From contig MIBH01000009.1 in the NCBI GenBank assembly GCA_001829455.1, forward strand, positions 2,263 through 63,158: a DNA stretch of 60,896 nt, in the 5' to 3' direction. The stretch's first letter is position 1; every line of letters starts with the position of its first letter. The position numbers were made by a program, and so were the translations under genes. A model generated the notes under the pieces. That model was not told where the DNA came from. It did not search any database and saw only the letters and a program-made list of their open reading frames with translations. This DNA is from Spirochaetes bacterium RBG_13_51_14 (lineage in GTDB: Bacteria; Spirochaetota; UBA4802; UBA5550). Positions 54,060 through 59,621 of the stretch are shown here, piece by piece.

Positions 54060-54993
54060 TCAGTCATTCATCAAGGAGCCCTTTATCGTTCCTGTAAGCC
54101 CGGTAGGTTTATCGATATAGCTTAGAGAACCCCACGCGTTGACCGCCCTGCCGCTCGCGGTCATGCCCAGAAGAGAAGGAACGGGTTCGCCTCCCTCTTT
54201 TATCGAGTTGACGACATCCTGGCTGGTGTAGTCCGGATTATTGGCTTTAATCATTGCGGCCAGCCCGGTAACATACGGCGTCGCCATCGACGTGCCCCGG
54301 GCGATTCTGTATGCGTCGTTTCTTTTCCATACCGCTCTCAGATAAAAATCTTTGATTTCGATTCCGGCATAAGCACTATTGGTGCCCGACGTGTTTGTAG
54401 TTGACGCCCGTATCCAGAACCGCGACCACAACCGAGCTGCAATCCGTTGCATGGTCCCACGCACGTTCGGCGTCCATATCATAGCCGGCCGTTCCGGGAT
54501 TGTTGGCCGTGATTGCGCCATCGCCGGAGATGGTCTGGCCGGTGTTCTTCAGTCCCCACAGCTGTTCGTACAGGGGATCGTTCGGTACCGTGTTTAAAAT
54601 CCGATAAATGTAATTTGGCTGGATGAACCCCGCGCATGCATAGATTGTCTTTGAAGTCGGGGATTTGGCGCCGCGTATATACGGCGCATAAACGGCGACC
54701 GCGGATCCGGAATTCGGTGTAACGGTCAGTGTATACCCGCCGCCGTCACTGTTGACCGCCCGTTCCCTGTTCGCTTCCCAGGAAAACGCAACGCGTCTCA
54801 TATTCCCGGGGCAGGATACGCCGAAAATATCGATGTCCGGTTCAGCCAATCCGAGCAGAAGCATGTTGTTCTCTGAATTGTCATTGCCGCCGTCCGTTCC
54901 GCATCCGGTTTGGCCCGCTACCATCAAAACGATAGTAAGGAAAAATATAAAAATAACATATAATTTTGTTGAGATACATTCCGATCTTTTCAT
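54060..54993 (-). pseudogene. decayed S8 (subtilisin-like) serine protease lipoprotein gene: frameshift plus loss of the His/Asn core
   Basis: ORF 54376-54993 has lipobox AGQTGC and the Asp motif [10 protein letters not shown], then stops. The overlapping ORF 54060-54521 in another frame carries GTSMATPYVTGLAAMI. The Asp and Ser motifs lie only about 125 nt apart, and no HGTH motif appears in any frame. Confidence 0.7.
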
Positions 54994-55330
54994 CCCGGTC
55001 CTCCGAATATAGCATAAGATGAACTGTAAAATTACACACTCATTTCAGAATAACGGCCTTTAACACATCCTTGAGATATGGATATGATGATATGAAAAAC
55101 AAATGTCATAGCCACTCACTTATTCTGATGTTACTATATAGTCATAAAAGCGTCTAAAATTAACGGAAAAAAATGTATTAATATACATTCTGCTTAAAAA
55201 TTATTCACGCACATCCAGTTACGTATGAGCGCATCCAAAAACATGGTACGCCCTCTATGCGGTAAAGAATTCACGGCCATTTATATAGCAGTTTGCTTAA
55301 AAAACGGGGGTGTCCCAAAAGTCGGAATTT

Positions 55331-55490
55331 CCTTCCCCCTTGATGGCCGCTCTCGGCCATCCGTGGCCTCCGCGGCATTGGTACATCCTGTACGGCAGGT
55401 GAGGATAGGGGGGGGGGATTTAACTTCTGATGTTTTCAGGACTGATACATCACCCTCCCCTATCCCCTCCCATCGAGGGAGGGGGAAAGG
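55331..55490. repeat. C-tract/G-tract hairpin repeat pair; the first copy is interrupted and includes a G10 run at 55408-55417
   Basis: The second unit ATCACCCTCCCCTATCCCCTCCC-atcga-GGGAGGGGGAA closely matches the reverse complement of 40576-40613. Both loci share the spacer motif CTGATACATC. Confidence 0.75.
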
Positions 55491-55720
55491 CGCTTATTAG
55501 ACAGCCACGATTCGATACACGTATGTATCACCGCTTTTCGAGGCGTATGCAGAGAATAACGTGATAGAATAATAAAATCCACATGAACGGCTTTCCCACC
55601 GCTCCATCCTCCTGACACACCCCGACTTTAATGAATGAGTGTTAGTAGTTTTAACTCCTGGCATGAGAAAAATTTTTCTGATTTTAACCTCCGGTTCGTA
55701 TACAGAACAAAGGAGGCTCC

Positions 55721-56743
55721 ATGCCGCGGATACGGAAATATCTCCTCATCATAATACTCATCCTGAAAACTCAGCTCTCCGCGCAACTGCTGATCAATGA
55801 GCTGGTTACCGAAACCACCAGCGACTGGGTTGAATTAACGCTGGCGAGTCCGACGCAGCAGTCGATGGATATCTCCGGTTTATACGTCACCATGTATTAT
55901 GGAACCAACGAGCCCCTGGCGGCCGAGCCAGTCACCATATACAGTTATGATCGCGCGGAAACGCCCTATGACGACCGCTATGTTGTGGTTCATCTCACCA
56001 AACCGGACATCCCTGACGAGACCGACCGTACCGGCGATACCAACGGCAACGGATATATCGATATATACTGCAATAATTATTTCGGCAGCCTCTGGAACAC
56101 AGACGGCGTTGTAGCTATTGACAGTGACGACGATCCGGCGAACGGGGGGATTATTGATTTCGTGTTTTACTCCAACCGAGACGGGAGTCCCAGCGAAGCG
56201 ATACTGGCGTATGTGACCGGCGCGCAGTCATATGGTCAGTGGCGGGGGTTTTCCGGCGAGAGCCCTCAGGAATGCGCCGCATTCATCGGAAAAAAAGGGC
56301 TCCCCTCGTACATGAGCCTGTCACGGAAGAATCGGGCTGACACCAATTCCGCCGACGATGTTGCCGTGACCAACATCCAGACGCCCGGCGCGCCGAACAT
56401 CACCGCGCCATTGTTCATGGGAAACCGCCTCTTCAAGCCCCTGCGAAAAAAAATCACCATCATACCCGGTCACTGCCTGTTCGGCAGCGGCTGCATACCG
56501 GTTTTCGTGTTTGCGCCCTGCGTCATAAAATTGCGCATCTTCACGGTTACCGGCATCGCTATCCACGAGTCTCCCCTGTTCCCGTCGGTGAATCCGGGAC
56601 TGTGTACACTCTTCTGGAACCCCCTTCTGCAGCACAGGCGCCCGCCCACGGGATTGTATCTGTGTAAAATCGAGGCGGTTAATCCTTCCCTTCGCCTCGC
56701 CGAGGAAGAGATAATCTACATCCTGCTGAGCCATTACCGATGA
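55721..56743 (+). CDS. secreted lamin-tail-domain (LTD) protein with a C-terminal beta-sandwich (FlgD-Ig / sorting-domain-like) segment
   Basis: Signal peptide ..ILKTQLSA. LLINELVTETTSDWVELT..DISGLYV is the LTD N-terminal pattern. The C-terminus IKLRIFTVTGIAIHE..LFWNP..PTGLYLCKIEA resembles Ig-like sorting domains. AAGGAGG lies upstream. Confidence 0.7.
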   Translation: MPRIRKYLLIIILILKTQLSAQLLINELVTETTSDWVELTLASPTQQSMDISGLYVTMYYGTNEPLAAEPVTIYSYDRAETPYDDRYVVVHLTKPDIPDETDRTGDTNGNGYIDIYCNNYFGSLWNTDGVVAIDSDDDPANGGIIDFVFYSNRDGSPSEAILAYVTGAQSYGQWRGFSGESPQECAAFIGKKGLPSYMSLSRKNRADTNSADDVAVTNIQTPGAPNITAPLFMGNRLFKPLRKKITIIPGHCLFGSGCIPVFVFAPCVIKLRIFTVTGIAIHESPLFPSVNPGLCTLFWNPLLQHRRPPTGLYLCKIEAVNPSLRLAEEEIIYILLSHYR

Positions 56744-58035
56744 TACCGATAAGCATCCTCCTCTGCCTTGCCACCGCGGCCGTATCCGCATTCGATTACC
56801 GGGAAACGCCGCCGGCTGCGCTTTTCCCGTTCTGCCAGGCAGCCGCGGACGCGTCCCTCCCCGACGCGATTTCCAACCCCGCGTACCTGCCGTCGATCCG
56901 GTATCCGTACCTCCACTGTTCCGGGGGTATGCCCTATACCCTCGATGAACTCTATTCCAGCACCATCCGGATCGGATACGGCACGCACGGCGTCGGAATT
57001 CAGGCGGTCTGGAACCGGTTCGGATTCGCGCAGTACCTGGAGCACATTGTCGAGGGCAATATCGGATACATGCCGGTCAAGTACGTCTCAATCGGCGCCG
57101 GCGTATATTACTACAATCTGACCATGGATACGGTGGAAATCTCCCTGTCGAGCCATCTGGTGGACGGTCGCGCTTCGATCCTCGTGTCCCCGTGCAGATG
57201 GATCGATCTTTCTTTTTTACAGGAAAATATCGGTTCGCTCCTATGCCCGAATAGGAGGGACCTGCTCTTCCCCGAATGGAGCGCCGGAGCCGCGCTCAGG
57301 CCGGTGCAGGGCTTCACGCTCCTGTATAACATGAACCGCACGGCCGTCGGATACGTGAACTCCATTTCAGCATCGGCAAACGTCCTGAAATATTTTTCCG
57401 TTAAGGTCGGATACGCACGTGAAGCAAACACCTATTCGGCATCCCTGTGCGTTCTATACCGGTACGTCGCTGCATCATACGGATTGAAATATCACCCGCA
57501 TCTCGGCTTCACCCATTCAGTGGGTATCACGCTGTCGACGCAAGACATAAACATTGAGTCGCTCGGTTACGGCCCCCTTATGTCGAAAATCCGGAAACTT
57601 CACGACGGGAGAAAAATCGACATCAACACCTGCTCCTATGACGATCTCCTGGGCGTGCGCGGTTGCGACCGGCACTATACCGAACGAATCATGAAATACC
57701 GGAAAACAATCGGGCCCCTGACTCGAACGGGCCTTCTGCAGATCGGCATGTCGGAAAAAGAAGTGAACCATATGCTCGAGTATATCACGGGCCTCGCACC
57801 TGAGGATCCCGATTCGGGCATCGGACGCCGCGGCGGATCTGACCTGGAATGCAAACAGAAACGGCTGTTTAGAGATCTTATCGAGCTCGGTCTCCCCGCT
57901 GCTACGGCGCTGGAGATCGCCGAACTGGCCGTAACGGGGGATTATCGAACAATCCAGAACCGAATCAATTCACTGCCAGCGCTGGACGCGCGAAAAAAGA
58001 AAAGGGCACAGGAGCTATGCACCGGAGCACGCTAA
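56740..58035 (+). CDS. beta-barrel-like envelope protein fused to a C-terminal ComEA-type helix-hairpin-helix region
   Basis: ATGA start/stop overlap with the LTD gene. Signal peptide, SNPAYLP motif, and alternating hydrophobic strands for about 270 aa. Then IDINTCSYDDLLGVRGCDRHYTERIMKYRKTIGPL (HhH). Confidence 0.65.
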   Translation: MIPISILLCLATAAVSAFDYRETPPAALFPFCQAAADASLPDAISNPAYLPSIRYPYLHCSGGMPYTLDELYSSTIRIGYGTHGVGIQAVWNRFGFAQYLEHIVEGNIGYMPVKYVSIGAGVYYYNLTMDTVEISLSSHLVDGRASILVSPCRWIDLSFLQENIGSLLCPNRRDLLFPEWSAGAALRPVQGFTLLYNMNRTAVGYVNSISASANVLKYFSVKVGYAREANTYSASLCVLYRYVAASYGLKYHPHLGFTHSVGITLSTQDINIESLGYGPLMSKIRKLHDGRKIDINTCSYDDLLGVRGCDRHYTERIMKYRKTIGPLTRTGLLQIGMSEKEVNHMLEYITGLAPEDPDSGIGRRGGSDLECKQKRLFRDLIELGLPAATALEIAELAVTGDYRTIQNRINSLPALDARKKKRAQELCTGAR

Positions 58036-59621
58036 TCGGCGCCGCACTGCTCTGCTGCAGCCCGGCGTATGCCGCTGAACCGATATGGTCCGATCCCGAG
58101 CTATCGATTCAGGCGGAATACCGGCAGGACACGCTGGATTACGACGACGTTGAAAAAAAGTTCTGCAGCGAAAAAGCCCGCCTATCCTTTGGCAAAAGCT
58201 CCGCGAGTTTCACCCATGTCTACATCAATGCGACCGGGGAACACCGCTTCACCTGGAACCTGACGATCAGCGGCATTCCACCCTATTTCGACTGCATTCT
58301 GGGCCATTACTACGCAAACTTCGGGGCCGGACTGCTGGTAGGCAGGAAAAGAGCCCTGTCGTCGGACCAGTTTTCCCGGCGCCTGATTGTCTCAAGAGGA
58401 AGTCCCTTCCTGCCGTGCAGCAGCGGTAATCCTCTCTACAGCTTCCATGGCGCCGCGGCAGGTTTTACCGTTCCGGTCGGCGGCATCTCCCTTTCAGTCC
58501 GGGGATTTGTTTCCTTCCGGAACCGATTCGCCAGAAATGATGCGTATGCTCCCGATTCCACCGGCAATTCGTTCAATTCCATCCTCGGAAGATTACAAAA
58601 GGATTTTCGCTACTCGGAACCGGTGGAAATCAATGATTATGGATCCGTCGTCGACCTTCGCATTTCAGAGCATTTTTTTTTGCAGTCGTACTTTCTGTAT
58701 GCCGGGATCCGTCGCGCCGTCAACCGCTCGTTCCTCTGGAACTACGGCGATGGGGGCCTGCCGCTGGGCGAGAAGGCATTCTATTGTTTCGGATTTTTCT
58801 TCCAGTACCGGGACGACTATATCACTCTCTTCATCGAGCTTGGTTTCCCGAACAAGGTCCTCTCCACTCCCGCCGGCATGACCAGAAGCGTGCGCGACTT
58901 CGGCATCCTGTACGGCCTGACCTTCCGGCATCGAGCCTGTGAACTCTCCTTTGCGGGGAAGAACACGGGCAACAATTTTTATTCTCCCTACAGCTCCGGC
59001 GTCAGTCACGCGGAAACAGCGTGTGCGATCGGCATAAGGATCCGGCCGCTGCCGGAGCTGTGCCTGGGATGTGGTTTTTTCGGGGAGAAAAAAATATCAT
59101 CCGCCGCCAACCAGTCGTATCTCCCCTCCATCATAAGGGAACAGGTGTTCTTTAAATACGGCGCTGCCCGCAAAGGATCCGTTTCCGCGCGGCTCTCATT
59201 CGTTGAACAGGAGAAAAAGACCGGCATTGACCGCTATATTCAGATCAAATCATCGGCAAAAATATATGCGAAGAAATCCGTGCTCTTTTCCTTTTCAGGC
59301 ACCGCGCAGCGCAAAGGGGACGGCCGCTATTCGGGATCAATAAACGCCGGGACATCGCTGTGCATGCTGAGATATCTCACCGTTACGCTTTTCTATTCCC
59401 GGTTTTTTATCGGACGGGACAACCCGCTTTACACATCGATATCCCCGCGCCCCAATTCCATCACGCCCGGAATGCTCGTGAAGGCCACGTCTCACATGGC
59501 GACCTGCCGCCTGACGGCGCGGTATCACGACGTGCGGATTTCGGCGCGCTACCAGCATCAATTCACCGGAACAGGCTCCCGGCAGTACCGGATCGAGGTT
59601 TCTGCGGGATGCATCCTGTAG
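58017..59621 (+). CDS. large beta-barrel-like exported protein, family unassigned
   Basis: AGGAG lies 3 nt upstream. Signal peptide ..CCSPAYAA. Aromatic-rich alternating pattern throughout. 19-nt overlap with the upstream gene. Confidence 0.6.
   Translation: MHRSTLIGAALLCCSPAYAAEPIWSDPELSIQAEYRQDTLDYDDVEKKFCSEKARLSFGKSSASFTHVYINATGEHRFTWNLTISGIPPYFDCILGHYYANFGAGLLVGRKRALSSDQFSRRLIVSRGSPFLPCSSGNPLYSFHGAAAGFTVPVGGISLSVRGFVSFRNRFARNDAYAPDSTGNSFNSILGRLQKDFRYSEPVEINDYGSVVDLRISEHFFLQSYFLYAGIRRAVNRSFLWNYGDGGLPLGEKAFYCFGFFFQYRDDYITLFIELGFPNKVLSTPAGMTRSVRDFGILYGLTFRHRACELSFAGKNTGNNFYSPYSSGVSHAETACAIGIRIRPLPELCLGCGFFGEKKISSAANQSYLPSIIREQVFFKYGAARKGSVSARLSFVEQEKKTGIDRYIQIKSSAKIYAKKSVLFSFSGTAQRKGDGRYSGSINAGTSLCMLRYLTVTLFYSRFFIGRDNPLYTSISPRPNSITPGMLVKATSHMATCRLTARYHDVRISARYQHQFTGTGSRQYRIEVSAGCIL

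Follow-up and report, generated by a model that had tools for sequence, protein, structure and literature searches.

We describe here a module of three overlapping genes that an entire order of uncultured Spirochaetota has inherited as a unit, and whose products are a secreted protein with a putative lamin-tail domain (LTD), a predicted outer-membrane barrel extended by a ComEA-type helix-hairpin-helix (HhH) tail, and a second, larger predicted barrel. The module lies on the + strand, at positions 55721-59621, of a 60,896-nucleotide stretch of DNA (the window) from contig MIBH01000009.1 of Spirochaetes bacterium RBG_13_51_14, and it consists of three open reading frames (ORFs): gene 1 (55721-56743, 340 aa), gene 2 (56740-58035, 431 aa) and gene 3 (58017-59621, 534 aa). 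A first-pass annotation, made from the letters alone, had reported that these ORFs are linked by short overlaps and that each encodes an N-terminal signal peptide. Direct reading of the sequence bears this out: the ATGA at 56740-56743 contains both the stop codon of gene 1 and the start codon of gene 2, genes 2 and 3 share 19 nt (58017-58035), and all three proteins begin with a hydrophobic, signal-like segment. A Shine-Dalgarno sequence, AAAGGAGG, is located 6 nt 5' of gene 1, and another, GGAG, precedes gene 3. The possibility that these are chance ORFs was rejected because all three have full-length relatives, with E values as low as 1e-160 to 1e-190. We are highly confident both of this anatomy and of the unity of the trio as a single module.

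A module inherited as one unit

Our census covered 301 Spirochaetota genomes, 45 from the order to which the window belongs and 256 others; the genomes are related to one another, and the counts are therefore not counts of independent events. Genes 1, 2 and 3 are present in the same 43 of the 45 order genomes, and they are neighbours in every case in which both positions are given and the contig is long enough; one further genome carries a fragment of gene 3 at a contig end. Gene order and overlaps were retained in every locus that was fetched (24/24, namely 16/16 reference loci and 8/8 further loci of the order), including L016 and L017, in which the trio is intact and the proteins are 28-55% identical to those of the window. 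None of the three genes was found in the other 256 sampled genomes, save for eight with distant gene 2-like genes and one with a gene 1-type LTD inside giant ORFs, and the three families of the phylum with the best sampling yielded no such module. In their own genome the three genes are single-copy, with no paralogs. Their relatives come from uncultured Spirochaetota, some of the records being labelled Leptospirales. For gene 1 we have identified 297 of them, all from uncultured Spirochaetota; for gene 2 a word search gave 52, and an exhaustive profile search gave 571 representative clusters at E <= 1e-10, of which 96 reached E <= 1e-30. The trio is thus inherited as one unit across the whole order, which settles positively the co-occurrence check that had been proposed with the first-pass annotation.

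The flanks of the module are less constant. Downstream of gene 3 lie, as in most loci of the family, genes for a MerR regulator and an acyl-CoA dehydrogenase (ACAD). A six-gene operon including them was considered and rejected: in L016 most of the flanking genes differ while the trio stays. The MerR gene has a separate promoter-like region 3' of gene 3, and a scan for promoter and terminator consensus sequences performed no better than on shuffled sequence. On the 5' side, gene 1 is preceded by a 700-nt untranslated region (55013-55720) containing a G10 run (about 55407-55416) and inverted repeats of C-tracts and G-tracts (about 55440-55490), which could conceivably be a regulatory or mobile element. 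Beyond it, on the - strand at 54060-54993, is a decayed protease gene of the S8 subtilase type, in which the Asp box and the Ser box fall in two overlapping ORFs that are read in different frames.

Predicted architecture of the three proteins

The features of the module, all on the + strand, are the following.

55721..56743, +: gene 1, a secreted 340-aa LTD protein (putative) with a C-terminal Ig-like domain (ORF, Shine-Dalgarno sequence, relatives)
55721..55783, +: signal peptide of gene 1, residues 1-21, ending between LSA and QLLINE (sequence reading)
55784..56404, +: putative divergent LTD of gene 1, residues ~22-228 (boundary motifs, remote profile alignment)
56438..56740, +: Ig-like domain of gene 1, resembling FlgD-Ig and the C-terminal domain (CTD) of type IX secretion system (T9SS) substrates, residues ~240-340 (weak profile matches, hhalign)
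56740..58035, +: gene 2, a predicted 431-aa outer-membrane barrel with a periplasmic HhH tail (ORF, relatives, AlphaFold2 (AF2) model)
56791..57564, +: hatch segment with NPAY and 14-strand FadL/PorV/PorQ-like barrel of gene 2, residues 18-275 (AF2, Foldseek)
57592..58032, +: predicted periplasmic tail of gene 2, residues 285-431, an HHH_3 module followed by a helical second module (profile match, alignment)
58017..59621, +: gene 3, a predicted 534-aa, 24-strand outer-membrane barrel without a plug domain (AF2, hhalign)
58302..58445, +: most conserved segment of gene 3, residues ~96-143, GxYYANFGAGLLVG...SRGxPFxPCxSGNPLFSF (family alignment)

The AF2 model of gene 2 (pLDDT 82) has a signal-like helix at residues 2-17, 14 strands at residues 57-266 that form a barrel with pLDDT of about 90, and a helical tail at residues 278-429. 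Foldseek placed FadL homologues first, with FadL, TbuX and TodX as top matches, and also retrieved OmpG, chain 8gl6_F of a T9SS substrate complex and, low in the list, a chain of the extended barrel assembly machinery (BAM) complex of Flavobacterium johnsoniae. The NPAY motif lies in the N-terminal segment, as in the hatches of FadL and PorV, and within the family N46 is invariant and P47, A48 and Y49 are conserved in at least 90% of the members. None of the PorV, PorQ and PorP family models (NF033709, NF033710, NF033711, TIGR03519, PF11751) scored above its cut-off for gene 2, Pfam Toluene_X did not match the protein of the window, and NCBIfam PorV_fam matched 1 of 49 relatives, at E 0.031. 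Judged from the structural model, we are confident in predicting that gene 2 is a 14-strand barrel of the FadL/PorV/PorQ type, in agreement with the NPA-containing N-terminus and strand-rich, barrel-like part noticed at first reading. Because the number of strands is even, the C-terminus would lie on the periplasmic side, as does the C-terminal tail of SprF (PMC12635249).

When the three proteins of the window were scanned against Pfam and NCBIfam, the only family recovered was HHH_3 (PF12836), at residues 291-329 of gene 2 (28.4 bits, with a cut-off of 27, and 31.8 bits when the genome was scanned). This family was present in 49/49 aligned relatives, so the ComEA-type HhH read from the letters in gene 2 stands. 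The profile of the tail aligns with the solved ComEA structures 8dss (E 6.5e-6) and 8dfk, and the comE model gives weak matches in 42 of the 49 relatives. The second module of the tail is probably degenerate. The tail is basic, with a median isoelectric point of 9.3 among the relatives, and Cys298 and Cys427 are invariant in the family, which suggests a disulfide between them and fits an extracytoplasmic location.

Gene 3, described at first as a strand-like candidate barrel of 534 aa, is modelled by AF2 as a barrel of 24 long strands (pLDDT 85, pTM 0.80) preceded by a signal-like helix at residues 2-14. Barrels were thus predicted with confidence for both genes 2 and 3, the outcome of a check that the first-pass annotation had suggested. 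For gene 3, Foldseek retrieved usher and TonB-dependent-transporter barrels, at a TM score of about 0.45 that covers the barrel part alone and reflects a generic likeness. No Pfam family matched at E <= 1, including Plug and TonB-dependent receptor, and no TonB box or usher domains were detected; since the 24 strands fill the 534 aa, there is no room for a plug domain. The most conserved segment, residues ~96-143, forms in the model a long loop between strands 5 and 6. Residues G96, G103, G105, D117, G137, P139 and G145 are invariant in the family, and the G.Y..FG.GL core of the loop aligns also in distant HhH-barrels (see below). By analogy with porin loop L3, this loop may act as a constriction or gate within the barrel.

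The N-terminus of gene 1 looks like a type I signal peptide, because the lipobox Cys is absent. Conserved in the gene 1 family are a start motif (LLINE..DWVEL) and an end motif (SLSR..TPGxPN) of an LTD, together with an insert, DETDxTGDTNxNGxID, that resembles a Ca-binding loop of the DxNxNGxID type. An hhalign comparison with a true LTD protein was collinear from end to end but weak (E 9e-4, probability 23%). For the C-terminal part, residues 193-326 aligned with the FlgD_ig-containing end of distant LTD proteins (E 4.5e-5, probability 69%); among 69 relatives, CHU_C, a type-B T9SS signal, matched 15 (best E 2e-4, below the 27-bit cut-off) and FlgD_ig matched 2. A profile search of the PDB with the gene 1 family gave nothing usable. 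In another Spirochaetota genome (G034), a gene 1-type LTD module, corresponding to residues 19-228 and including the Ca-loop insert, is found inside two giant ORFs of 6105 and 4398 aa (G034:C17:24649-25212 and G034:C33:680-1252), and the module therefore appears to be used in very large surface proteins as well.

Distant relatives and genomic setting

A distant version of the module, older than the trio, was read in eight genomes (loci L037-L044). Their gene 2-like proteins are 443-454 aa long and, in 7/8 loci, the gene is followed by an ORF of 657-865 aa that starts with HhH modules. Profile comparison by hhalign shows the barrel of this large ORF to be a homologue of gene 3 (probability 95%, E 2.9e-8, 402 columns). 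Its HhH part matches HHH_3 with 70 bits over two stretches in L039 and with 37 bits over one stretch in L043. Just upstream of the gene 2-like barrel, five loci (L037-L039, L043 and L044) encode one or two LTD-type proteins, and those of L038, L039 and L044 pass the cut-offs for LTD (37-75 bits) and FlgD_ig (39 bits); the proteins encoded in this place in L040 and L041 are shorter, and one of them has a weak FlgD_ig-like tail. The distant gene 2-like protein itself scores 84 bits with TIGR00426, the model of the ComEA repeat, and 52 bits with PorV_fam, below the cut-off of 90. All ten distant gene 2 relatives that were sampled, one of them from Elusimicrobia, match both PorV_fam and TIGR00426, with 9/10 above the cut-off of the latter. 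Distant relatives score 34-85 bits with PorV_fam (cut-off 90) and, where they pass TIGR00426, 60-103 bits, and they match the PorQ and PorV2 models too. The distant clusters also hold additional PorV/FadL-like barrels and an fn3 protein with a Por_Secre_tail-like end, and a neighbouring barrel in these loci shows a weak resemblance to BamG (41.7 bits, where the family cut-off is 250). A metagenome scan for barrel-ComEA fusions, keyed on the HhH pattern, returned 79 plain HhH or ComEA-type loci and one true fusion, which is a near-copy of the L041 cluster. After the module, L037 (1045-2142) and L038 (1436-2407) encode NHL-repeat beta-propeller lipoproteins (NHL 99-103 bits).

A canonical T9SS was looked for in the host genome, which is 90% complete, and was not supported: GldM and GldN were not found, GldL gave noise only (E 0.02), PorU matches were limited to CTD-like tails, PF11751 (PorP_SprF) had no match, and PorV and SprA stayed below their cut-offs. 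Outside the window, the same genome encodes an SprA-like ORF of 1867 aa (G000:C43:36962-42565, L001/L002), which matches TIGR04189 at E 1e-21 and 76 bits against a cut-off of 200. SprA-like ORFs are present in 40/45 genomes of the order and in 8/8 distant genomes with the gene 2-like barrel, and none was found in the three largest families without the module; in all, 83 of the 301 sampled Spirochaetota genomes encode an ORF of this kind, with a length of about 1,900 aa. Here, outside Bacteroidota, the SprA-like ORF may represent a translocon of the T9SS kind that operates independently of the known motor. Several other proteins of the host genome have CTD-like or FlgD-Ig-like ends, marked by CHU_C and PorU-tail matches below threshold (G000:C73:29286-29498, C38:6801-7016, C35:55734-55979 and C24:11035-11292), a hint that more exported proteins may carry a C-terminal tag of this type.

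With regard to competence, gene 2 is the sole protein of the host genome above the HHH_3 cut-off, so that no free-standing ComEA was found, and ComEC is present. Also outside the window, at G000:C54:1-13000, lies a complete-looking, gsp-type operon for a type II secretion system (T2SS) that contains the only secretin of the genome, together with an ATPase, a platform protein, four pseudopilin-like genes (GFTLIE) and a GspK-like gene that matches HhH weakly.

Proposed function and comparison with known systems

The reading that we favour, although we put it at rather less than an even chance, combines surface display with DNA handling. After Sec export, gene 1 would cross the outer membrane through the SprA-like translocon or through gene 3; its C-terminal domain would dock on gene 2, and gene 1 would in this way stay on the cell surface. 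Gene 3 would serve as a partner channel, and the basic HhH tail beneath the membrane would still hold incoming nucleic acid in the periplasm, the ancestral function of ComEA. The trio would then be a pilus-independent station that captures extracellular DNA and imports it, as food or for delivery to ComEC. Gene 2 is proposed to hold gene 1, with gene 3 as the channel, because the type-B T9SS cargo and its carrier are the closest known logic, and the distant loci support such a pairing, since there the proteins that pass LTD and FlgD_ig are encoded directly 5' of a PorV_fam-like barrel. A DNA role is favoured by the canonical ComEA repeats found on both barrel types in the distant relatives, as well as by a host that has ComEC but no free-standing ComEA and whose sole secretin belongs to a gsp-type T2SS. 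A further argument is that Bacteroidota offer a precedent for DNA transport without a pilus by an outer-membrane barrel and a DNA-binding surface partner (PMC12478041). On these grounds, DNA capture or uptake by the trio is plausible. Extended to a third route across the diderm outer membrane, complete and pilus-independent, the proposal becomes unlikely in our judgement; here, in the trio and its older relatives, a surface LTD protein on a PorV-like carrier would catch extracellular DNA, the 24-strand barrel would be the conduit and ComEA-type domains at the periplasmic ends of the barrels would act as a ratchet towards ComEC or degradation.

Several observations weigh against this combined reading. 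The G-h-G hairpins of HhH domains contact the DNA backbone, and among the 49 gene 2 relatives G-h-G is kept in 4 for hairpin 1 and in none for hairpin 2; in the window the hairpins read VRGCD and IGMSE. TIGR00426 (cut-off 53.1 bits) does not match gene 2 of the window and gives weak matches in 30/49 relatives, the best at E 3.6e-6. The PsbU and GspK models also match HhH of the gene 2 type weakly, and HhH_3-like domains that do not bind DNA occur outside the cytoplasm. The HhH tail is predicted to hang from the periplasmic side of the barrel rather than to be exposed on the cell, which bears on the DNA-capture part. No nuclease, nucleotidase or ComEC gene was found in the operon of the window or, for the eight distant loci, at a distance of up to some 6 kb. 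Given a tail predicted to be periplasmic, hairpins that are mostly lost and a neighbourhood in which no nuclease was found, DNA capture can be proposed only tentatively. As for the display part, the host genome lacks detectable GldL, GldM, GldN and PorU, as described above, and neither the T9SS CTD models (PF18962/TIGR04183 and CHU_C, PF13585) nor FlgD_ig (PF13860) score above their cut-offs in gene 1. Pfam LTD (PF00932, gathering threshold 34.3 bits) gives no match to gene 1 of the window and matches just 1 of 69 relatives (E 0.018), so that its LTD, a tentative assignment, depends on the motifs and the remote profile links. For the lamin-tail pattern first seen in gene 1 there are conserved motifs and a weak hhalign link, and for its Ig-like end an hhalign link, in neither case with a match above a Pfam cut-off.

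The same observations can be read as a display module without any DNA role, a real possibility to which we give a somewhat lower chance. Gene 2 would then anchor an LTD adhesin or matrix binder, gene 3 would be an export or partner barrel and the HhH would be a tether to a periplasmic structure, possibly through Cys298 and Cys427, by analogy with the cysteines of the SprF C-tail that bond GldK (PMC12635249). The loss of G-h-G while the fold and the Cys pair persist speaks for this reading, and so does the content of the distant clusters, in which no nuclease was found but many surface proteins that carry a CTD (LTD; fn3 with Por_Secre_tail), along with NHL propellers and additional barrels of the PorV/FadL type; the presence of SprA-like ORFs in most of the order and in all the distant genomes points in the same direction. 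What display alone leaves unexplained are the canonical ComEA repeats (HHH_3 up to 110 bits) on both older barrel types; moreover, the tail remains basic, and partners of the GldL/M/N type were not found. Between its two suggestions, a module that captures extracellular DNA or an anchor for the LTD protein, the first-pass annotation fares better with the second, which fits best the PorV-type gene 2 and the CTD-like end of gene 1, whereas DNA capture is a tentative proposal. None of the three results that it had named as fatal to its proposal was obtained: barrels are predicted, the HhH region is matched by its profile and the trio is conserved as a unit.

Two further explanations were weighed. 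The trio could be an outer-membrane biogenesis or general porin set without a specific cargo, for example accessory barrels like BamG; the weak BamG match in the distant loci and the F. johnsoniae BAM chain among the folds resembling gene 2 would be in keeping with this, but BAM accessories show neither HhH fusions nor a strict one-to-one pairing with an LTD-CTD protein. Since no such module turned up in the three families of the phylum that are sampled best, the trio does not appear to be a core outer-membrane function, and we consider this explanation very improbable. At least as improbable would be the uptake of hydrophobic substrates of the FadL type, tied to the downstream MerR and acyl-CoA dehydrogenase genes. 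The top folds of gene 2 (FadL, TbuX and TodX), the NPA hatch motif and the MerR/ACAD genes usually found downstream of the trio in this family speak for it. These flanks are, however, mere synteny among close kin, lost in L016, and MerR has its own promoter-like region; uptake of this kind has no place for the LTD, the Ig-like CTD or the HhH, and the PorV family is itself FadL-like.

In most diderms, DNA is thought to cross the outer membrane by means of a type IV pilus and PilQ, in Helicobacter by a type IV secretion system, and TonB-dependent barrels of the DdbC type joined this picture of DNA entry in 2025. If the combined reading were true, a barrel with a built-in periplasmic ComEA, a surface partner and a plug-less barrel would be a candidate for a further DNA route. 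If its DNA part were to fail, the trio would represent T9SS-style anchoring of a cargo by a carrier outside Bacteroidota, in genomes without the T9SS motor, with a bearing on the evolution of the T9SS. In either case, three families now annotated as hypothetical or 'HhH domain-containing' are core genes of an entire order. The first-pass annotation knew of no characterised system with this gene trio and, in accordance with this, our literature search found no paper on the trio or on a fusion of a PorV-like barrel with ComEA.

The trio does share features with several known systems. In the T9SS of F. johnsoniae, type-B cargo stays bound to a dedicated PorP/SprF carrier, as with SprB and SprF (PMC9143113, PMC12618676), and SprF has a functional periplasmic C-tail with conserved cysteines that is bonded to GldK (PMC12635249). 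As in the type-B/PorP-SprF pairs and the PorV/PorQ shuttles, the gene for a Sec-exported, Ig-ended protein lies directly 5' of that for a FadL-like 14-strand barrel, and as in these carriers the barrel is predicted to have a periplasmic C-tail with conserved cysteines. The differences are, however, important: (i) the genome of the trio has no detected GldL/M/N or PorU, and its SprA-like ORF is sub-threshold; (ii) the PorV_fam and CTD scores are below their cut-offs and nearly undetectable in the clade of the window; (iii) the tail of gene 2 is a ComEA-type HhH and not a short Cys-X-Cys, and a third gene, encoding the 24-strand barrel, is obligatory.

A similar scenario is observed with ComEA, the periplasmic DNA receptor of natural transformation, which is known from V. 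cholerae (PMC3879209) and from the structures 8dss and 8dfk (PMC9747964). The tail of gene 2 is homologous to the DNA-binding domain of ComEA and is predicted to be periplasmic, as is ComEA in diderms. Unlike ComEA, which is either soluble or held in the inner membrane, the tail is joined to a barrel of the outer membrane; its G-h-G is mostly lost, TIGR00426 stays below the cut-off, and the genome shows no link to a type IV pilus or PilQ. The FadL/TodX proteins share with gene 2 the 14-strand barrel and the N-terminal NPA hatch, and are its best structural matches, yet Toluene_X gives no match, and FadL systems have neither an HhH tail nor operon partners of this kind.

Pilus-free crossing of DNA has been proposed for DdbC and DdbD, from a DNA-utilisation locus of Bacteroidales, and for related transformation genes of Riemerella anatipestifer (PMC12478041). 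Compared by description, DdbC/DdbD and the trio both pair a large outer-membrane barrel with a surface-exposed, putatively DNA-binding partner. They differ in that DdbC is TonB-dependent and has a plug whereas gene 3 matches neither Plug nor TonB-dependent receptor, in that DdbD is a DUF5689 lipoprotein whereas gene 1 is a putative LTD protein, and in that ddb loci contain nucleases and the operon of the trio does not. Taken together, because the defining features of these systems were examined and each comparison showed departures from them, we assign the trio to no known system, and see it instead as a variant of three kinds, the ComEA proteins, the T9SS carriers with their cargo and the outer-membrane DNA transporters, being a member of none of them.

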